The position numbers and the translations under genes were made by a program. Shown here in pieces: positions 7,395 through 60,735 of a stretch of DNA of 64,000 bases. The notes beneath the pieces were generated by a model. The model was given only the letters and a program-made list of their open reading frames with translations. It did no database searches and was not told the origin of the DNA. This stretch comes from Sulfuricella sp. (GTDB lineage: Bacteria; Pseudomonadota; Gammaproteobacteria; Burkholderiales; Sulfuricellaceae). Every line of letters starts with the position of its first letter. The stretch's first letter is position 1. Location: NCBI GenBank assembly GCA_023266195.1, contig JAHFRP010000002.1, forward strand, positions 154,779 through 218,778, written 5' to 3'.

Positions 7395-10300
7395 ATGCGC
7401 CTGACCCACATCAAACTCGCCGGCTTCAAGTCCTTCGTCGATCCCACCGCGATCCCCGTTCCGGGGCAGCGCGTCGGCGTGGTCGGCCCCAACGGCTGCG
7501 GCAAGTCCAACGTGATCGACGCCGTGCGCTGGGTGCTGGGCGAATCGCGGGCGCGCGAGCTGCGCGGCGAATCGATGCAGGACGTGATCTTCAGCGGTTC
7601 AGCCACGCGCAAGCCGGTCGGGCGCGCCAGCGTCGAGCTGATTTTCGACAACAGCCTGGGCAAAGCCGCAGGCCAGTGGTCGCAATACGCCGAAATCTCG
7701 GTCAAGCGGGTTTTGACCCGTAGCGGCGAATCCACCTACCACATCAACAACCTCCACGTCCGCCGCCGCGACATTACCGATATCTTTCTCGGCACCGGGC
7801 TGGGCGCGCGCGCCTATGCCATCATCGAACAGGGCATGATCTCGCGCATCATCGAGGCGCGGCCCGAGGAACTGCGCGTGTTCCTGGAGGAAGCCGCCGG
7901 CATTTCCAGATACAAGGAGCGCCGCCGCGAAACCGAGCTGCGCCTGAAGGACGCTCGCGACAACCTGCTGCGGGTCGAGGATGTGCGGCAGGAGCTGGAC
8001 AGGCAGATCGGCAAGCTGGAAGGCCAGGCGGCGGTGGCGGAGCAGTATCTCGCGCTGCAAGTCCGGCTCAAGCTGACGCAGAGTTTGTTGGCACTGGCGA
8101 AAAAACGCGCAGCGGCCGCGCAGTGCGAACGCTGGCAGCGCGAAGTCCAGCGCCTGACCACCGAACTGGAAGCCGAGAACGCGCGCCTGCGCCAGGCCGA
8201 AAGTCAGCTGGAGCGGACGCGGGAAGTCCATTTTGCCGCCAGCGACGCGCTGCACGAAGCGCAGGGCGCACTTTACGCGGCCAACGCCGAAGTCTCGAAG
8301 CTGGAGCAAAACCTCCAGCACCAGCGCGAAAGCCGCCGGCGCCTGGATGCCCAAACTGCCGCGCTGCGCGATCAGCACGCAAGGCTGGAAGCTCAGCGCG
8401 ACCAGGCGCTGGCCGCGTTGCAGCACTGGCGCGGCGAACTGGTTGTGGCCGGGCAGCAGGTTGCAGCGAGCAAAGAACGGGTGCGGCAGGAAACGATTGA
8501 TTTGCCGCTGGCCGAGGAAGGCTTCCACGACGGCCGGCGCCGCCACGGCGACCTGCAAAGAAATCTCGCCCAGGCCGAGCAGACGCGGCAGATCGAGGAA
8601 ACCCACCGCAGCCATGCCCAGCGCAACCTGCAGCAATTGCAGGCAAGAGGGCAGCGCCTGGAGCAGGAAGCGGGCAGTCTGCCGCGTTTCGACATTGCGT
8701 CGCTGACACGGAAAGAGGTCGAACTTGGCGCCGCCGATGGCGCGCTTGCCGCGGTCCAGGGCGAACTGGCGCGGCGGCAGGACAGCCTGCCGGAAATCGA
8801 GCGGGTTGCGCGCGAAGCCAGGGACGGATTGCACGCCGAACAGCGCCAGGCCACCGAACTGGAAGCGCGGCTGAACGCGCTCCTGCACGTGCAAAACCGG
8901 CTCGACCAGAACCACAAGCTGCAAGCCTGGCTGGCGAAGCACCGTCTGGAAAAACTGCCGCGCCTGTGGCAAAGCCTGAAGATCGAAGCAGGCTGGGAGG
9001 ACGCGCTGGAAAGCGCGCTGGGCGAGCGCCTGAACGGCATCGCGCTGGAAAGCCTCGATCAGGCGAGCGCTTGGCTGATGGACGCACCGCCGGCGGTGGT
9101 CACGGTGTTCGAAGCGTCGGCTGGTACGCCAAGCGTGGGTACGGCCAGTGTGGGTACGGCTTCAGCCGTACATGAGGATCCACAGTCTGACCCGTTCCAG
9201 CCGTTGAGCAGCTATCTTTCCTTTGACGGCGAACCCCAGGCATCGCTGGCCGATTGGCTTGACGGTGTCTACGCGGTCGAAGACGCCGCGACCGGCTTGG
9301 CCAGGCGCCGCGATCTCCCCGTCGGCGCCATGCTGGTGTCGCGCGAAGGGCATGTTTTCACCCGGCATGCGGTGCGTTTTCATGCGCCGCAAAGCGAGCT
9401 TCACGGCGTGCTGGCGCGCCAGCGCGAGATCGATGCTTTGCAGGGGGAGCTGGCGCCACGGCTAGAGGCGCTGGCGCGGCGGCAGGCTGCGGCGGTCCGG
9501 GCCGAAGGGGCGCTGGCCCGGCTGCGGCAGGAGATCGCGCAGCTGCGCGGCGAGACCGCCGAGGCGCAGCAGAAACAGCACCGCCTGCAGCTGGAGGTGC
9601 AGCGGCTCGGCCAGTCCAGGCAGCAGGCCGAGCAGCGCCGGGCCGCGATCTCCGCGGAGCAGGCCGAGATCGGCGCACAGCTTGAGGCGGAGGGCGGGCA
9701 GCTGGCCGCGGCGGAAGAAAAACTGACGCTGGCCCGGAATGAAATCGCGGCGCTGCGGGAACGGTTGGACCGGACCCGGCAGGAACGAGCGGAATTGGAA
9801 CAGCGCGTCAACCGGCAGCGCGAGGCGCTGCGGCAGGCCGAGCGCGCGGCGCAGGAGGCGGTTTTCGTCGAGCAAAACTGCCTGAACAAGATCGGCGAGT
9901 CGGAGTCGTCGTCCGCGCAACTGGCGGAGCAGGCGCAAACGACCGGCGCTCAGCTCGAAACGCTGTGCGCCGAGCAGCAGCGGGGCGGCGAGGAGTCCTT
10001 GCAGCAGGCGTTGCAGCAGGCGCTCGCCGAGCGGCAGGACAGGGAGCAAACCCTGGCAGCGGCGCGCGACGTCCTGGCGGGCGCGGCGAACAGTCTGCGC
10101 GATCTGGAGCAGCAGCGCATGGCGAGCGAGCAGAAACAGCAGCCGCTGCGCGACCGGATCGGCGAGGCGAGGCTGAAGGAGCAGGAGGCGCGGCTCGGCC
10201 AGGAGCAGTACGAAGGCCAGCTCAAGGCCGCCGGCGCGGACGAAACGGCGCTGGCGCGGGAGCTGGAAAAAGCGGCGAAGCCACAGGTCCTGCAAGGCGA

Positions 10301-10955
10301 GATCGTCCGGCTGGGGGCCGAAATCGAAGCGCTCGGCGCGGTGAACCTGGCGGCGTTGGAAGAACTACAAACCAGCCGCGAGCGCAAGGGCTATCTCGAA
10401 GCTCAGGCGAGTGACTTGAACCAGGCGATCGATACGCTGGAGCAGGCGATCCGCCGCATCGACCGGGAAACGCGGGAGCGTTTGCAAGCGACATTCGACG
10501 CGGTCAATCGCGGCTTCGGCGAGCTGTTCCCGTCGCTGTTCGGCGGCGGCCATGCGCGCCTGGTGCTGACCGGCGAAGAAATCCTCGATGCCGGCGTGCA
10601 GATCGTCGCGCAGCCGCCGGGTAAGAAGAACAGCTCGATTCACCTGCTGTCCGGCGGCGAGAAGGCGCTGACCGCGCTGGCGCTGACCTTCTCCCTGTTT
10701 CAGCTCAACCCGGCGCCGTTCTGCCTGCTCGACGAGGTGGACGCGCCGCTCGACGACTCGAATACCGAACGCTTTTGCGAGATGGTGAAGAAAATGTCGA
10801 AAGAGACCCAGTTCATCTACATCAGCCATAATAGAATCACCATGGAAATGGCGGAGCAGCTGGTCGGCGTGACCATGCAGGAAATGGGCGTGTCGCGCGT
10901 GGTGGCGGTGGATATCGAACAAGCGCTGCGGATGAGCGAAGCGGCGTCCGCCTGA
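7395..10955 (+). CDS. smc: Chromosome segregation protein SMC
   Basis: 1186 aa; Walker A GPNGCGKSN, coiled coils, hinge, LSGGE signature, Walker B LLDEVDAPLD. Confidence 0.97.
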   Translation: MRLTHIKLAGFKSFVDPTAIPVPGQRVGVVGPNGCGKSNVIDAVRWVLGESRARELRGESMQDVIFSGSATRKPVGRASVELIFDNSLGKAAGQWSQYAEISVKRVLTRSGESTYHINNLHVRRRDITDIFLGTGLGARAYAIIEQGMISRIIEARPEELRVFLEEAAGISRYKERRRETELRLKDARDNLLRVEDVRQELDRQIGKLEGQAAVAEQYLALQVRLKLTQSLLALAKKRAAAAQCERWQREVQRLTTELEAENARLRQAESQLERTREVHFAASDALHEAQGALYAANAEVSKLEQNLQHQRESRRRLDAQTAALRDQHARLEAQRDQALAALQHWRGELVVAGQQVAASKERVRQETIDLPLAEEGFHDGRRRHGDLQRNLAQAEQTRQIEETHRSHAQRNLQQLQARGQRLEQEAGSLPRFDIASLTRKEVELGAADGALAAVQGELARRQDSLPEIERVAREARDGLHAEQRQATELEARLNALLHVQNRLDQNHKLQAWLAKHRLEKLPRLWQSLKIEAGWEDALESALGERLNGIALESLDQASAWLMDAPPAVVTVFEASAGTPSVGTASVGTASAVHEDPQSDPFQPLSSYLSFDGEPQASLADWLDGVYAVEDAATGLARRRDLPVGAMLVSREGHVFTRHAVRFHAPQSELHGVLARQREIDALQGELAPRLEALARRQAAAVRAEGALARLRQEIAQLRGETAEAQQKQHRLQLEVQRLGQSRQQAEQRRAAISAEQAEIGAQLEAEGGQLAAAEEKLTLARNEIAALRERLDRTRQERAELEQRVNRQREALRQAERAAQEAVFVEQNCLNKIGESESSSAQLAEQAQTTGAQLETLCAEQQRGGEESLQQALQQALAERQDREQTLAAARDVLAGAANSLRDLEQQRMASEQKQQPLRDRIGEARLKEQEARLGQEQYEGQLKAAGADETALARELEKAAKPQVLQGEIVRLGAEIEALGAVNLAALEELQTSRERKGYLEAQASDLNQAIDTLEQAIRRIDRETRERLQATFDAVNRGFGELFPSLFGGGHARLVLTGEEILDAGVQIVAQPPGKKNSSIHLLSGGEKALTALALTFSLFQLNPAPFCLLDEVDAPLDDSNTERFCEMVKKMSKETQFIYISHNRITMEMAEQLVGVTMQEMGVSRVVAVDIEQALRMSEAASA
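9135..9172 (+). repeat. REP-like palindrome (family C) in frame within smc
   Basis: 9149-9172 TGTGGGTACGGCTTCAGCCGTACA matches intergenic 38885-38908 at 23/24; partial tandem copy at 9135-9149. Confidence 0.8.
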
Positions 10956-15635: not shown

Positions 15636-15747
15636 GTTTGGTTATATCAGAAGCCGAATTTGCTGAAGTCAGTGTACTGGCGGTAGAAGTAGGTAGAATC
15701 GTCGGCGGATTGCGCGCGCCCATAAAACGTCAAATTTAAACCCGTCC

Positions 15748-15773
15748 ACTCAGGACTCAGCACTCAGGACTCA
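15748..15773. repeat. Heptamer tandem repeat (ACTCAGG/ACTCAGC) x3.7
   Basis: actcagg-actcagc-actcagg-actca directly before the start at 15778. Confidence 0.7.
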
Positions 15774-23154: not shown

Positions 23155-26100
23155 ATGCTCAAACTGCGCGGCGGCAACGCCCTTTCCTCCTTCCGTCTCG
23201 AAAAATTGATGCAGGGCCTGCGCGAAGCCGCGCCCGCCGTTTCCCACGTCCACGCCGAATACTGGCATTTCGCCGCCGCCCGCCGCGAACTGGAAGCGCA
23301 GGAGCTGGCCGTGCTGGAAAAAATCCTGACCTACGGCCCGGCGTCGATGGTGGAGGAGCCGCAGGGCGAATTGTTCCTGGTGGTGCCGCGCATCGGCACG
23401 ATTTCGCCGTGGTCGTCGAAAGCTTCGGACATCGCCAGCCATTGCGGGCTGGAAGCCGTCGAGCGGCTCGAGCGCGGGGTGGCTTTCTACGTGCAGAAGC
23501 GCGACGGCACGGCGCTTGCGGCGGAGGAAAAAGCGGCGCTGCTGCCGCTGATTCATGACCGCATGACCGAAGCGGTGCTGGCCGATTTCGATTCCGCCGA
23601 CAAGCTGTTCCGCCATTTCGAGCCGGCGCCCTTCGCCAGCGTGGACATCCTCGGCCAGGGCCAAGCGGCGCTGGAGGCGGCCAACCGCGAAATGGGGCTG
23701 GCGCTGTCGCCGGACGAGATCGAATACCTGGTGGCCAACTTCAGCCGCATCGGCCGCAACCCGACCGACGTCGAGCTGATGATGTTCGCGCAAGCCAATT
23801 CCGAACACTGCCGCCACAAGATTTTCAACGCGGACTGGGTTATCGACGGCGTGCCGCAGACGAAATCGCTCTTCGCCATGATCCGCAACACCCACCAGCA
23901 AAGCCCGCGCGGCACGGTGGTGGCCTATTCCGACAACTCCTCGATCATCGAGGGCTTCACGGTCAGGCGCTTCTATCCGCGGGAAGGCCATGCCTACGGC
24001 TACGCCGAGGACAACGCGCAGATTCTGATGAAGGTGGAAACCCACAACCACCCCACCGCGATTTCGCCCTTTCCCGGCGCCGCGACCGGCTCGGGCGGCG
24101 AGATTCGCGACGAAGGCGCGACCGGCCGCGGCTCCCGGCCCAAGGCCGGCCTGACCGGATTTTCGGTGTCGAATTTGAATATTCCGGGGTTTAAGCAGCC
24201 TTGGGAATATTACATCTCGGACGCCCACGCCGACCCTCTCCCCAACCCTCTCCCTGCACCCGCAAGGAGTGTCCCCGCCGAGAGCGGCGGCAAAGCCGCT
24301 CGCTCTGGCGAGACGGGAGAGGGGGCAATGGAGGAAGGCGCTTGTTTTGATCGATTCGGCAAGCCGAATCGCATCGCCTCGGCCCTGCAGATCATGCTCG
24401 ACGGCCCGATCGGCGGCGCGGCGTTCAACAACGAGTTCGGCCGCCCCAACCTGGCCGGCTATTTCCGCACTTACGAGGAGCAGGTGGCGGGCGAGATGCG
24501 CGGCTACCACAAGCCGATCATGCTGGCCGGCGGCGTCGGCAACATCTCCGCCAGCCACGCCCAAAAGCACCAGATCACGCCGGGCGCGCTGATCATCCAG
24601 CTCGGCGGTCCCGCCATGCTGATCGGCCTGGGCGGCGGCGCGGCGTCCAGCATGGATACCGGCGCCAATGCCGAGAACCTGGATTTCGACTCGGTCCAGC
24701 GTGGCAACCCGGAAATGGAGCGCCGCGCCCAGGAGGTGATCGACCGCTGCTGGCAGCTGGGCGACAAGAACCCGATCGTCTCGATCCACGACGTCGGCGC
24801 GGGCGGCCTGTCCAACGCCTTGCCCGAGCTGGTGAACGATTCCGGGCGCGGCGGCCGCTTCCATCTGCGCGCCATCCGCAACGAAGAGCCGGGCATGTCG
24901 CCGATGCAGATCTGGAGCAACGAAGCGCAGGAGCGCTACGTGCTCGCCATCAAGCCGGAGGATTTCGCTCAGTTCGAGGCGATTTGCCGGCGCGAGCGCT
25001 GCCTTTACGCGGTGGTCGGCGAGGCAACGGCCGAGCAGCGGCTGGTGCTGGAAGACAGCTATTTCAACAACCGGCCGATCGACATGGATTTGGCGGTGCT
25101 GCTCGGCAAGCCGCCGAAAATGACGCGCAACGTCGCGCGTGTGGCGCGGGAACTGCCGGCTTTCGATACCGCCGGGCTTGACCTCGACGAGGCGGCTTTC
25201 CGCGTTTTACGCCTGCCGGCGGTGGCGGACAAGACCTTTCTGATTTCCATCGGCGACCGCACCGTCGGCGGCATGACCGCGCGCGACCAGTTCGTCGGCC
25301 CCTGGCAGATTCCGGTGGCGGACGTGGCGGTGAGCCTGGCCGGCTTCGAGGAATATCGCGGCGAAGCCTTCGCCATGGGCGAACGCACGCCGCTGGCGCT
25401 GATCGACCCGGCCGCTTCGGGGCGCATGGCGATCGGCGAGGCGATCACCAATATTGCCGCCGCCTCCATCGCCGAAATCGGCGACATCAAGCTTTCCGCC
25501 AACTGGATGGCGCCCGCCGGCCACCCCGGCGAGGACGCCGCGCTGTACGACACGGTGCGTGCGGTGGGCATGGAATTGTGTCCGGAGCTCGGCATCGGCA
25601 TCCCGGTGGGCAAGGATTCGATGTCGATGAAAACCGTGTGGCAGGAGGACGGCGGCAAGAAGGAAGTCACCGCGCCGCTGTCGCTGATCGTTTCCGCCTT
25701 CGCGCCGTGCATCGACGCGCGCCTGACGCTGACCCCGCAACTGCGCACCGACGCCGGCGAAACCGACCTGACCCTGATCGATCTCGGCCAGGGCAGGAAC
25801 CGCCTCGGCGGCTCGGCGCTGGCGCAGGTCTACAAACAGATCGGCAACCAGGCGCCGGACGTGGCGAACGCGGCGCAGCTCAAGGCGTTTTTCGACACCG
25901 TGCAGCAGATCAACCGCGACGGCAAATTGCTCGCCTACCACGACCGCTCCGACGGCGGCCTGTTCGCCGTGTTGTGCGAAATGATGTTCGCCGGCCACTG
26001 CGGCGTGACGGTCGATCTGGGCGAATCGGGCAATATTTTCGCCGCGCTGTTCAGCGAGGAACTGGGCGCGGTGCTGCAGGTGAAGCGCGGCGACACCGCG

Positions 26101-27165
26101 GCCGTGAAAAGCGCATTCCAGAGCGCCGGCCTGGGCGCCGAACTGCGCGTGATCGGCACGCTGAACGCGGACGACCGCCTCGCCATCCGGCGCGCCGGCA
26201 CGGAAGTGTTCGGCCATTCCCGCATCGAACTGCAACGCGCCTGGTCAGAAACCACCAGCCGGATGCAGGCGCTGCGCGACAACCCGCAATGCGCCGCGCA
26301 GGAATACGACCGCATCCTGGACGGCGGCGATCCCGGACTGCATGCCGCACTCGGCTTCGACCTGAACGACGACGTCGCTGCCCCGTATATCGCCAGCGGC
26401 AAACGCCCGCGCATGGCGATCCTGCGCGAGCAGGGCGTCAACGGCCAGGTGGAAATGGCCGCCGCCTTCGACCGCGCCGGCTTCGACGCGGTGGACGTGC
26501 ACATGAGCGACATCATCGAAGGCCGCGTCGCGCTCAGGGATTTCCGCGGCTTTGCTGCCTGCGGCGGCTTCTCGTTCGGCGACGTGCTGGGCGCGGGCGA
26601 GGGCTGGGCCAAATCCATCCTGTTCAACAGCCGCGCCCGCGACGAGTTCGAGGCGTTCTTCCGGCGCAGCGACACCTTCGCCCTGGGCGTGTGCAACGGC
26701 TGCCAGATGATGAGCAACCTGTACTCCATCATCCCCGGCGCGGAAAACTGGGCGCATTTCGTGCGCAACAAATCGGAGCAGTTCGAAGCGCGCTTCGTCA
26801 TGGTGGAAGTGCCGCAAAGCCCGTCGCTGTTCCTCGACGGCATGGCCGGCAGCCGCATGCCCATCGTCGTGGCGCACGGCGAAGGCTACGCCGAATTCCG
26901 CAGCCCCGAGCAGATGCAGGCCGCCCAGGTGGCGCTGCGTTTCGTCGACAACCGCGGCAACCCGACCGAAACCTATCCGTCCAACTCCAACGGCTCGGCC
27001 CAGGGCATCACCGGCCTGACCACGCCGGACGGCCGCTTCACCATCATGATGCCGCACCCGGAACGCGTGTTCCGCGCGGTGCAGCACTCATGGCATCCGG
27101 AGGGTTGGGGCGAAGACGGGCCGTGGATGCGGATGTTCAGGAATGCGAGGAAGTGGGTGGGGTAG
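23155..27165 (+). CDS. purL: Phosphoribosylformylglycinamidine synthase (large type)
   Basis: 1336 aa; [39 protein letters not shown]. Confidence 0.98.
24234..24325 (+). repeat. CCCTCTCCC/GGGAGAGGG palindromic element in frame within purL
   Basis: ccctctccccaaccctctccc (24234-24254) pairs with gggagaggggg (24315-24325) around an inner hairpin agcggc-ggcaaa-gccgct. Confidence 0.75.
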
Positions 27166-27440
27166 GACAGGGGGCGGCTTTGACAAGAACGCCGATTATG
27201 GATGTCGTTAAAGCAGCCCTGTCGGTTGCGCCGGAAGTTCTCGGGAACATCTGTTACTTTAGCGTAAAACTCGCGAAGCGAGACCTCGTCCCCCTCGCCC
27301 ATCTCGCCGAGGTCGTTGCGTAGCAGCGGGAACCCGGCGGGGATACTCCTCGCGGGTGCTTGCGGGAGAGGGCCGGTCATGGCGAATCCCCGTTTCATGA
27401 TTCGGGGCGGCGATTCGCCATGACCGTTAGCCTTATATGA

Positions 27441-38884: not shown

Positions 38885-38932
38885 TGTGGGTACGGCTTTA
38901 GCCGTACAGTCAGGCTGAAAGCCTGACCCACA
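38885..38932. repeat. REP doublet, family C (GTGGGT type)
   Basis: tgtgggtacggctttagccgtaca followed by inverted related arm gtcaggctgaaagcctgacccaca. Confidence 0.85.
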
Positions 38933-44810: not shown

Positions 44811-46570
44811 GTTTGGCTAAACGCACGTTCGATGCGGTGATCATCGGCGGCGGCGGAGCGGGACTGCGCGCCGCGCTGCAATTGGCCCAGGCCGACCTCA
44901 AGGTGGCGGTGGTGTCCAAGGTGTTCCCGACCCGCTCCCACACGGTTTCAGCCCAGGGCGGCATCGCCGCCAGCCTCGGCAACGTCAACGAGGACAACTG
45001 GCACTGGCACATGTATGACACGGTGAAAGGCTCGGATTACCTGGGCGACCAGGACGCCATCGAGTTCATGTGCCGCCAGGCCAACGAGGCGGTGATCGAA
45101 CTGGAGCACTACGGCATGCCGTTCGACCGCCTGCCCAACGGCAAGATCTACCAGCGCCCGTTCGGCGGCATGACGCAGAATTACGGCGGCGCGCCGGTGA
45201 TGCGCACCTGCGCCGCGGCCGACCGCACCGGCCATGCCATGCTGCACACCTTGTACCAGCGCAACATCGCCGCCAAGACCCACTTTTTCGAGGAATATTT
45301 CGCGCTCGACCTGGTGATGGACGGGCAGGGCTACGCCTTGGGAGTGGTGGCGATGGGCATCGAGTCGGGCGAACCGATTTTCATCGAGGCCCGCGCCACG
45401 CTGATCGCCACCGGCGGGGCGGGGCGCATCTTTTCCGCCACCACCAATGCGTTGATCAATACCGGCGACGGCCTGGGCATGGCCCTGCGCGCCGGCATCC
45501 CGCTCGAAGACATGGAATTCTGGCAGTTCCACCCGACCGGCATCTACGGCGCCGGCGTGCTGGTGACCGAAGGCGTGCGCGGCGAGGGCGGCTACCTGGT
45601 CAACAAGAACGGCGAGCGCTTCATGGAGCGCTACGCACCCAATGCCAAGGACCTCGCCAGCCGCGACGTGGTGTCGCGCGCCATGGCGGTGGAAATCCAC
45701 GAGGGGCGCGGCTGCGGCAAGGACGGCGACCACGTCTACCTCAAGCTCGACCACCTCGGGCCGGACGTGATCAAGCAGCGCCTGCCGGGCATCCGCGAGC
45801 TGTCGTTGAAATTCGCCCACGTCGATCCGATCGAGGCGCCGATTCCCGTGGTGCCGACGGTGCATTACATGATGGGCGGCATTCCCGCCAATATGCAGGG
45901 CCAGGTGATCATGCCGACCCAGACCGGCCCGGAAGAGGCGGTGCCCGGCCTGTATGCCATCGGCGAGTGCGCCTGCGTGTCGGTGCATGGCGCCAACCGC
46001 CTGGGCAGCAATTCCCTGCTCGACCTGATCGTGTTCGGGCGTGCCGCCGGCAACCATGTGATCGAATATCTCAAGGAAAACCCGTTCTCCCGGCCGGTGC
46101 CGAAAGAAGCGCTGGAGCGGCCCATGGCGCGGCTCAGCCGCTGGGACGAAAAGCGCGACGGCATCACGGTGGACGCGCTGCGCGAGGAAATGCGCAAGAC
46201 CATGCAACGGCATTGCGGCGTGTTTCGCACCGAGGAAGTGTTGCAGGAAGGCGTGCGGCAGATGCGGGAAATCGCCGCGAAATTACCCGACGTGGCGTTG
46301 CGCGACCAGAGCAAAGTCTACAACACCGGCCGGATCGAGGCGCTGGAGCTGGAAAACCTGATGGCCGTGGCGCTGGCGACCATGACCGCCGCCGCCGCCC
46401 GCAAGGAAAGCCGGGGCGCCCACGCGCGCGACGACTACCCGCAGCGCGACGACAGCAACTGGCTCAAGCATTCCCTGTATTTCAGCGAGGGCAGCCACCT
46501 CGACTACAAGCCGGTGCGGCTGAAACCGTTGACGGTCGAGACGTTCAAGCCGAAGCCGAGGGTTTATTGA
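44807..46570 (+). CDS. sdhA: Succinate dehydrogenase flavoprotein
   Basis: [16 protein letters not shown] (FAD His), QFHPTG, HGANRLG; start at ATG 44807 (587 aa). Confidence 0.97.
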
Positions 46571-46576
46571 GTTGGA

Positions 46577-46656
46577 AGTGAAGAGTCAGGAGTCGGGAGT
46601 GAAGAGTTAGGTGCGGTCTACTCCTCACTCCTAACTCTTCGCTCCTGACTTTACTC
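46577..46656. repeat. Heptamer-periodic inverted repeat (GAGTNAG family)
   Basis: Same family as 7303-7387; fills the sdhA-sdhB gap. Confidence 0.8.
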
Positions 46657-46667
46657 TGGAGAGTGAA

Positions 46668-47589: not shown

Positions 47590-47665
47590 AGTTTTCAGTT
47601 TCCAGTCCAACCCCCACTGGTTTGCCTGGCCGTTACTGATAACTGACGACTGACAACTGATAACT
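47590..47665. repeat. Heptamer-periodic inverted repeat (ACTGANA)
   Basis: agttttc-agtttcc-agt ... actgata-actgacg-actgaca-actgata-act. Confidence 0.7.
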
Positions 47666-60510: not shown

Positions 60511-60601
60511 GGAGAGGTGGATGAGTGGTTTAAGTCGCACGCCTGGAAAGCGTGTTCAGGATAATATCCTGACGGGGGTTCGAATCCCCCCTTCTCCGCC
60601 A
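60511..60601 (+). tRNA. tRNA-Ser (GGA)
   Basis: GGAGAGG acceptor stem, anticodon loop CTGGAAA, long variable arm, GTTCGAATC, encoded CCA. Confidence 0.96.
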
Positions 60602-60608
60602 GATTTAT

Positions 60609-60704
60609 GGCGGGCCTCCCCGCATTGCAAGGTAGTGAACCTGGTCAGGTCCGGAAGGAAGCAGCCACAGCTATTTATTGCAAGTGCCGGGGGAAAGGCT
60701 CGCC
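60609..60704 (+). ncRNA. ffs: Signal recognition particle 4.5S RNA
   Basis: TCAGGTCCGGAAGGAAGCAGC helix-8 motif in a long hairpin; upstream of dnaX. Confidence 0.95.
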
Positions 60705-60735
60705 ACCCTTATTTTCTAAAGCTCTTAGAAATTCA

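Follow-up and report, generated by a model that had tools for sequence, protein, structure and literature searches.

Palindromic repeats inside protein-coding genes have been described before. Rickettsia palindromic elements (RPE) are dispersed palindromes that lie in frame in many genes (PMC10969869, summarising Ogata et al. 2000, 2002). Intragenic REPs carry a GTAG or CGTC tag (Di Nocera et al. 2013, PMC3733652), and intragenic RU and ERIC repeats are known from enterobacteria (Delihas 2007, PMC2759123). The triplex motif (TM; also TM_ECO, BoxC or PIT), for example CCCTCTCCC-TGT-GGGAGAGGG-CCG-GGGTGAGGG, is described as intergenic, occurs in more than 260 genomes and is linked to local genomic instability (PMC4666352, Holder et al. 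2015). Here we describe a 49-codon insert in purL of a Sulfuricella sp. (assembly GCA_023266195.1). It lies at positions 24208-24354 of a 64,000-nucleotide stretch of contig JAHFRP010000002.1 (positions 154,779 to 218,778, forward strand), which we call the window and which has a GC content of 62%. Our data indicate that the insert is probably a nested pair of dispersed, unrelated, structure-forming repeat elements, an outer element of ~85 nt (O) and a 57-nt core, which became fixed, in frame, where PurL has a permissive loop.

The host open reading frame (ORF; 23155-27165, + strand) encodes 1336 amino acids. Its translation, its homologues, a full set of FGAR-AT, AIRS_C and GATase_5 Pfam domains and PDB matches including 1T3T identify it as purL, the gene for the large single-chain type of phosphoribosylformylglycinamidine synthase. 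The nearest public relative, PurL of a Sulfuricella metagenome-assembled genome (MAG), is 92% identical. The preliminary description of this DNA, made from the letters alone, had claimed a palindromic insert translated in the PurL frame at 24208-24354, where E. coli-type PurL has about two residues. Sequence, frame and inverted repeats bore this out, and the short loop agrees with Salmonella PurL, which reads PWE(358)-x-D(360)FGKP, and with a comparison of the 120 nearest homologues. Among these the spacing from WE to G(K/R)P is 3-4 residues in 90 and at least 8 in 28; in the window it is 50. The insert (+ strand) goes 47 codons beyond the usual x-x-Y loop, a net insertion of 141 nt. The CCCTCTCCC blocks at 24234-24242 and 24246-24254 are both 100% complementary to GGGAGAGGG at 24315-24323, and inner inverted-repeat arms at 24269-24288 and 24295-24314 enclose GGCAAA. 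The 9-mer CCCTCTCCC occurs four times in the window against 0.52 expected, a count that none of 100 shuffles reached. The predicted RNA fold of the insert has an energy of -71.5 kcal/mol, with a z-score of -2.3 against shuffles that is modest given the GC-rich sequence. What had been described as one nested palindrome is real as hairpin DNA but consists of two independent elements, one inside the other.

Element O has the form CCCTC(A/T)CCCCAACCCTCTCCC, a loop, then GGGAGAGGGGGCAAACGTGAAGGGCGCTTGTTTTGATCG, and is dispersed. In purL it is a G/C-rich pyrimidine-pyrimidine-purine hairpin, CCCTCTCCC-CAA-CCCTCTCCC...GGGAGAGGG, with a conserved tail. On the + strand its left spacer is TATTACATCTCGGACGCCCACGCCGA (24208-24233), which has homology with the left portion of the inserts that purL carries in L002, L003 and L001. 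The two pyrimidine blocks with their CAA spacer (24234-24254), compared with the TM_ECO sequences of PMC4666352, are read as PLPNPLP, and the purine block as GEG. The 3' tail GGCAATGGAGGAAGGCGCTTGTTTTGATCGA (24324-24354; 10 residues; family consensus ~GGCAAACGTGAAGGGCGCTTGTTTTGATCG) was matched by an nhmmer tail profile at 24315-24352 (E = 4.8e-10), and the profile found 29 copies in the DNA searched, of which six are core-free. At the same codon and between homologous flanks, purL of L002 (Sulfuricella STA_57) reads TATTAC...CCCTCTCCCCAACCCTCTCCC-GCAGGC-GGGAGAGGGGGCAA, with an ordinary 6-nt loop and no core, and purL of L003 has the right-hand O tail GGGGCAATGGTGAAGGGCGCTTGTT in common with the window. 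In the window, the 6-nt loop is replaced by 60 nt, namely TG, the 57-nt module at 24257-24313, and C.

When O was compared with the rules for TM motifs (PMC4666352, Table 1), each of its three blocks matched at nine of nine positions. The first loop, CAA, has 3 nt and fits the range of 1-6 nt. The second, at 60 nt, exceeds this range owing to the core, and the 6-nt loop of the orthologous copy in L002 lies within it. By the sequence of its blocks, O is of the TM/BoxC kind. It has the same three-block motif of CCCTCTCCC and GGGAGAGGG, a short first loop, multiple copies and local indel instability. The TM_ECO motif is described as intergenic, whereas O lies in frame in genes and has a conserved 30-nt tail, and the second loop of the window copy has been enlarged by the core from ~6 nt to 60 nt. 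No target-site duplication could be called for O in purL, where the (A/T)TAC...(T)TAC/TTC codon echo beside several inserts is too short and variable.

The core lies in the loop of the TM hairpin at 24257-24313 (+ strand). It consists of CACCCGCAAGGAGTGTCCCCGCC, a variable stem-loop and GGCGAGA, and encodes (A)+19 residues. A 58-nt covariance model matched it at 24257-24314 with 84.2 bits (E = 3.5e-18). It contains a 5' mini-hairpin, CACCC-GCAA-GG(A)GTG (24257-24271, + strand), with a GNRA-type loop and a helix that is 97% paired and lies in the part selected by the search pattern. The long hairpin (24276-24310, + strand), made of CGCC, an 11-bp variable stem with a 1-nt bulge and GGCG, covaries between copies. 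The variable stem occurs as GAGAGCGGCAGC/GCTGCTCGCTCT, GGGATTGGCAGC/GCTGCTCAATCC, GGGAACGGCAGC/GCTGCTCGTTCC and other versions that keep the pairing. Pairing extends to 86% of its cells; the figure is 72% for shuffles and 25-45% for slid controls. Double changes occur in nine pairs.

One genome per species was scanned with an exact shared 23-mer, which gave at least 104 core loci and more than 100 copies in Sulfuricellaceae genomes. Among the matches listed, all loci came from MAGs with the label Sulfuricella, Sulfurimicrobium, Sulfurisoma or Sulfuricellaceae, or from unclassified proteobacterial MAGs, and 88 of 96 copies were exactly 58 nt long from CACCC to GAGA(C/A), the adjoining base included. 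STA_41, the sister genome of the window, has at least 26 core loci by itself, and viral contigs gave no core match. The covariance model found exactly two cores in the window. The second (27301-27358, - strand; 59.6 bits, E = 2.3e-12) is intergenic, 3' of purL and ~3 kb from the first. The preliminary description had expected the motif to be dispersed, in agreement with this second copy (27290-27372, - strand, intergenic) and with the more than 100 copies of the inner part in the family. A motif confined to purL, together with a homologous non-palindromic loop of equal length in relatives, was not what we found. In the window, Rfam at the gathering threshold gave no family for the insert and matched only tRNA and signal recognition particle (SRP) RNA; these are a tRNA at 60511-60598 and, directly after it, a small SRP RNA at 60609-60707. 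A scan of 24150-24420 by E-value (up to 10) gave chance-level matches only (E>=0.35). With no Rfam family in either scan, the ribozyme, intron and known small RNA readings of the insert were rejected.

Core copies usually lie in hairpins. Complementary arms of at least 6 bp within 4 nt bracket 66% of them, compared with 11% of controls. In TM contexts the arrangement is CCCTCTCCC-TG-[core]-C-GGGAGAGGG or CCCTCTCCCG-[core]-CAAGCGGGAGAGGG, in the REPIN-like context the hairpin is GTCAGGCT/AGCCTGAC, and other, unrelated contexts include CCACTTCCG/CGGGAGTGG. Core-free counterparts of such hairpins are GTCAGGCTGAAGCCTGAC in L102 and the classical CCCTCTCCCGCAAGCGGGAGAGGG. Compared at the level of families, empty and filled hairpins match exactly (GTCAGGCTG^AAGCCTGAC and CCCG^CAAGCGGG) and are an exact 57-nt unit apart, with no duplication. 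The core is found in either orientation relative to O. The nesting can also be reversed: in L089 and L092 the apical loop of the core stem itself houses TM hairpins (CCCTCTCCC-AAA-GGGAGAGGG and others; L089 at ~1378-1500, + strand, and L092 at ~3061, - strand). The unrelated arms, the two orientations and the reverse nesting therefore indicate that the core is acquired independently of the host hairpin and prefers hairpin apices. Of 96 copies, 74 have G at -1 and 53 have C(T/C)G as the triplet at -3 to -1, a loose preference.

The second core of the window is part of a composite repeat (27258-27425, - strand) that comprises a hairpin GGTCATGGCGAATC...GATTCGCCATGACC (27375-27425), a TM arm CCCTCTCCC (27364-27372), the core, GGGCGAGGGGG (27290-27300) and a tail GACGAGGTCTCGCTTCGCGAGTTTTACGCTAA. 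This composite recurs in L041, L057, L075, L082, L083, L089, L094 and L105. The 275-bp spacer 3' of purL (27166-27440) is almost entirely made of repeat modules, that is, the tail, the core, the TM arm and the 51-nt hairpin. An RNA contig of run X4 has a loose end, GCTTGCGGGAGAGGG, at 27300, and it corresponds to a core-free form of such a composite. An empty type-B REPIN-like element, GTGGGTACGGC ... GTCAGGCT..AGCCTGAC, is present at 38886-38927 with a loop that has no core.

Like REP/REPIN sequences, the long hairpin of the core is a short imperfect palindrome in more than 100 copies. The unpaired GTAG/CGTC tag is absent, and CGTC appears only by a chance junction in one context type. Intragenic REP, RU and ERIC repeats resemble the purL elements as short palindromes in the ORFs of known proteins, where they add 20-30 residues that are regarded as neutral additions to loops and linkers. 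In contrast to tagged REPs, the core has GT(G/A)T before its long stem. It also has an additional 5' GNRA mini-hairpin, is mostly single rather than a head-to-head dimer, and lies inside other hairpins. Nor does it have the terminal inverted repeats and target-site duplication of miniature inverted-repeat transposable elements, its ends CACCC... and ...GAGA not being inverted repeats. Hairpins near both ends, no terminal inverted repeats and no target-site duplication are instead features of miniature elements derived from IS200/IS605. The core resembles IS200/IS605 elements, their hairpin-ended derivatives and the REPIN-RAYT system in these features and in sites that are expected to be single-stranded. 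However, no TnpA or RAYT gene was found next to any core copy in the DNA searched, and no conserved 4-5-nt target is evident, only G at -1 in ~77% of copies, then C or A. We take the likeness as an analogy of architecture and mechanism, not as membership. REP sequences are known targets of insertion sequences (PMC1525189), and the ssr9 module of ISPpu9 (IS110 family) inserts into them (PMC12288879). It is likewise a small non-coding module that spreads into palindromic repeats with its transposase in trans. ISPpu9 recognises one specific REP sequence and leaves AG at both ends, whereas the core lies in unrelated hairpins and has no repeated end dinucleotide.

Comparison of relatives shows an order of events. 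An ancestor of this Sulfuricella subclade acquired the ~85-nt O in the PWE/YGKP loop, and L002 and L003 keep it. In the lineage of the window, a 57-nt module of the separate core family then came to lie in the apical loop of O. Over 58 nt, the core in purL shows no difference from copies in STA_41 and one other genome, which suggests a recent arrival, and the covariance model found no core in purL of L001-L007. Of the two elements, only the core is specific to the lineage of the window; the outer hairpin, which is present in purL of relatives, is older than the species.

The core would spread without target duplication into single-stranded hairpin apices. Because it has no terminal inverted repeats and no target duplication, has hairpins at both ends, occurs in both orientations and occupies sites that are single-stranded when extruded, it may be mobilised in trans by a structure-directed enzyme of the single-stranded DNA type, of the HUH/Y1 kind as in IS200/IS605 and RAYT. 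This is argued by analogy, and we consider it a real possibility that falls short of being probable. We suggest more tentatively that the core might be an undescribed miniature mobile element whose target is structural, in that it would enter any DNA hairpin at its single-stranded apex whatever the sequence, thereby building Russian-doll hairpins.

Gene conversion between homologous hairpin arms would be an alternative to such spreading. For purL, the core would have been copied in by homologous recombination or gene conversion between O copies, with the arms CCCTCTCCCCAACCCTCTCCC and GGGAGAGGGGGCAA as homology, a route that we regard as possible but rather doubtful. The O arms are near-identical between copies, the window context CCCTCTCCC-TG-[core]-C-GGGAGAGGG is the commonest in the family (at least 13 times), the window loop is not the GCAGGC of L002 plus an insert, and the interleaving of filled and empty loops on the PurL tree suggests allele exchange. 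However, the 57-nt unit also occurs in both orientations and in unrelated arms (GTCAGGCT/AGCCTGAC, CCACTTCCG and others), which conversion between like elements cannot yield. Therefore, an independent insertion process is needed at least once per context type.

Loop DNA of purL was aligned for seven relatives, and filled and empty loop states were interleaved on the PurL tree. In STA_41, the sister of the window (O and core), the loop YYRDSATPHSF resembles a remnant of the left arm. O alone is present in STA_57, whose sister lineage comprises two empty-loop genomes, and P0008 (O with further additions) is sister to one such genome. The purL loop of L005 (1526-1603) contains in-frame heptamers, (CCCCTCA)x4, read as TPHPSPLTPH, and that of L007 (3112-3258) contains (CACGAAT)x7, read as TNHESRITTHESRITNH. 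In the distant clade of L006 and L007, another TM hairpin lies at the same purL codon. Judged by these alignments, the purL site is a recurrent hot spot of repeat-driven insertions and deletions, as would be expected from the instability published for TM motifs, and the caveat in the preliminary description that loop length varies among relatives was sound. The interleaved states may reflect repeated gain, repeated loss or allele exchange. Triplex or hairpin DNA would make the site unstable and would explain the many loop states among relatives. Heptamers also occur elsewhere in the window, in an intergenic long hairpin of the units GAGTCAG, GAGTCGG, GAGTGAA ... CTAACTC, CTGACTT at 46569-46660 and in short period-7 tandem arrays at 15747-15773 and 47635-47665 (ACTCAGG, ACTGACA).

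Alternatively, the insert might be a cis-acting RNA or DNA structure that the cell uses, either an internal mRNA stabiliser or pause site like REP hairpins or a programmed instability site. Local genome instability has been associated with TM motifs (PMC4666352), the loop of purL is hypervariable from relative to relative, and in one RNA run the depth upstream of the insert was higher than that just downstream. The other run gave about equal coverage on both sides, contig depth being a poor measure, and the presence of the repeat in ~15 unrelated genes and many spacers argues against a role specific to purL. We consider such a function improbable.

Of the words of the region, 90-97% were present in two groundwater DNA runs, and the same samples had also yielded two metatranscriptomes. 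At either end of the element, DNA unitigs from two samples connect it with unique purL sequence (23911-24263 and 24297-24519), and they break only within the high-copy interior of the repeat. RNA contigs from the two metatranscriptomes (23889-24263 and 23809-24275) extend from purL through the left arm into the core. RNA of purL was found both upstream and downstream of the insert, with a depth of ~7-16 upstream and ~10 downstream in run X4. The preliminary description had proposed a check for excision; the RNA contigs cross the left junction, and no joint or contig that skips the insert was present in the two metatranscriptomes. These data support co-transcription of the composite with purL mRNA. 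The unitigs, the RNA contigs and the lack of a skipping contig therefore argue against both excision and an assembly artefact.

An artefact would mean that a high-copy repeat had been misthreaded into purL of a MAG. Words of the core are at 30-40x the depth of flanking purL in the groundwater metagenomes, and unitigs do break inside the repeat. Nevertheless, independent unitigs from two samples join both sides, RNA contigs join the left side, the reading frame is intact and relatives have O at the same codon, so that this explanation is scarcely credible. Removal of the insert before the mature protein is formed, as intron-like or ribozyme RNA or as an intein-like peptide, would be in keeping with the strongly structured RNA and with the conserved two-hairpin fold of the core and its covariation. 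It can hardly be reconciled with the lack of an Rfam family even at E up to 10, with RNA contigs that go from purL into the core and with the missing skipping joint, and the peptide has only 49 residues and no intein motifs. In addition, the host frame is kept through the element in every in-gene case, in a search that could find in-frame cases only. We regard removal as most improbable.

Ribosomes would then read through the composite, and PurL would gain, and tolerate, a hydrophilic loop of low complexity with 47 extra residues. This loop would have no catalytic role, because the conserved motifs nearby are intact and the natural loop range is 3-50 residues. The insert is most likely selfish or structural repeat DNA that has been filtered by selection for frame and harmlessness.

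The preliminary description had further suggested that repeats are reshaping the proteome. We searched for ORFs of at least 80 codons on each side of a core and then for Pfam domains, a procedure that finds in-frame cases only. At least 15 genes of relatives, genuine housekeeping genes, carry the core in frame with Pfam domains on both sides of the element or across it, in line with that suggestion. They include gatB (L014), valS (L029), rsmD (L035), aroA (L043), nadB (L107), murC (L018), mrpA (L038), ccmI (L070), a gene for a DUF116 protein (L008), an addA/UvrD-like helicase-nuclease gene (L087 and L010), aceF, in the E2 linker (L068), and the linker of a fused two-domain ABC ATPase (L067 and L100). 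In L013, O and core lie in frame in what is possibly the N-terminus of murB, and a second, heptamer-type insert, SEPASTPHSSLLTPHPEE, lies further inside this ORF. Two of these sites, the ABC ATPase linker and the addA-like gene, have O and core in one genome and type-B REP and core in the other, and are further insertion hot spots like the purL loop. In L010 the core is expanded by an extra internal duplication. ORF pairs around cores were in frame in 22 cases and out of frame in 28, a noisy test for spliced elements; by eye, the five strongest out-of-frame pairs looked like antisense shadow ORFs or separate genes.

The core is read in the purL frame (...PAPARSVPA(E/G)...) at 8-9 of ~15 independent loci, whereas one in six is expected (binomial p ~1e-3 to 2e-4). 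This shared frame is in keeping with selection for the least harmful peptide, a small and polar one that has no Cys or Trp. An exhaustive search of 1.84 billion representatives found no conserved protein domain matching the insert peptide. It gave four matches, of which three were very short ORFs predicted over copies of the repeat and the fourth was an unrelated repeat protein. As a census this search is useless, since host proteins stand there as insert-free cluster members. A word-indexed peptide search gave one candidate and was uninformative. The public predictions P0121, P0122 and P0124 (48-67 amino acids) are translated intergenic O and core repeats, that is, annotation artefacts.

That the peptide is an adaptive, lineage-specific PurL loop with a regulatory role or a protein partner, and the palindrome incidental, might be argued from the kept frame and from the long loops of several relatives at this position. 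Yet the same DNA lies in non-coding spacers and in ~15 unrelated genes, and it is absent from the closest relative, which is 92% identical. The loop sequences of relatives are mutually unrelated save for repeat-element homology, and the peptide matches no protein family. We therefore think an adaptive origin very improbable.

The preliminary description had also pointed to a repeat of another family in frame in smc, and this was correct. A REP-like repeat lies at 9113-9175 in the smc ORF (7395-10955, + strand). It consists of three heads GTGGGTACGGC and a hairpin GTACGGCTTCAGCCGTAC and is read as AGTPSVGTASVGTASAVHEDPQ. The smc-type peptide GTASVGTAPVGTASAVH, joined to the core, is also found in the ABC ATPase linker of L100. 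The repeat is a member of the REPIN-like type B family, in which the second hairpin often hosts the core.

Several points weigh against our reading of the insert as two nested mobile repeats that are translated with PurL. Conservation of the 5' 23 nt of the core follows, at least in part, from how the search pattern was built. A covariance model (R1) run on 711 kb of core-flanking DNA gave 102 matches, which add only a handful to the pattern-selected copies; divergent copies thus look rare and the core family is therefore homogeneous. A transposase partner was not found when IS200 TnpA was compared by phmmer with 6068 ORFs of the ~850 kb of DNA searched, and none of the ORFs between the inverted core pairs of L075 and L008 is transposase-like. 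The window loop, TG..C, is not simply the GCAGGC loop of L002 with a core added, so either the ancestral loop differed or the core came by recombination with another core-bearing O. RNA contigs break in the repeat, no single contig covers the whole insert, and they could include contaminating DNA. Translation is something we infer only from the intact frame, the RNA contigs at the left junction and the missing skipping joint. A structure prediction of PurL residues 1-1200 from a 40-sequence alignment had a mean predicted local distance difference test score (pLDDT) of 58.8, with residues 290-472 all below 50, and is too poor to place the insert as a surface loop. The openness of the core in six frames was rejected as a sign of selection, since the same holds for 34% of dinucleotide shuffles and 12% of genomic 58-mers.

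The reading as nested repeats places purL close to the RPE in behaviour. So far as the summary in PMC10969869 describes them, RPE are in-frame palindromes in unrelated housekeeping genes, are read through, are present inside and outside coding DNA and are not known to have an autonomous partner, and the purL elements resemble them in this. The defining feature of RPE, a palindrome in frame in many unrelated genes, is seen here in purL and in at least 15 genes of relatives. According to the same summary, RPE are single units of ~100-150 bp in obligate intracellular alphaproteobacteria, whereas here two independent elements are nested in free-living, sulfur-oxidising betaproteobacteria, and the inner one prefers hairpin apices. 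Given the lineage and the GC content, sequence homology of the purL elements to RPE families is unlikely, and we liken them by behaviour without claiming membership. The phenomenon is thus known from RPE and intragenic REPs, the lineage and the sequences are new, and genuine novelty may lie in the apex-targeting core.

Our study indicates that protein-coding palindromes, long held to be a peculiarity of Rickettsia, also occur in free-living, GC-rich betaproteobacteria, where they affect essential enzymes (PurL, ValRS, GatB, AroA, MurC and NadB). The TM/BoxC motif, a non-B-DNA motif regarded as intergenic, is linked here to in-frame protein variation and to an indel hot spot within a gene. The inserts inflate protein length, create spurious small ORFs and break assemblies, and annotators of these lineages should mask them. 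The core is a testable candidate for structure-directed insertion into hairpin loops, a mode that is not clearly described for miniature elements and that would explain the origin of nested repeat composites. If apex targeting is true, a 19-codon, usually stop-free core would ride in-gene hairpins into proteins across a bacterial family.

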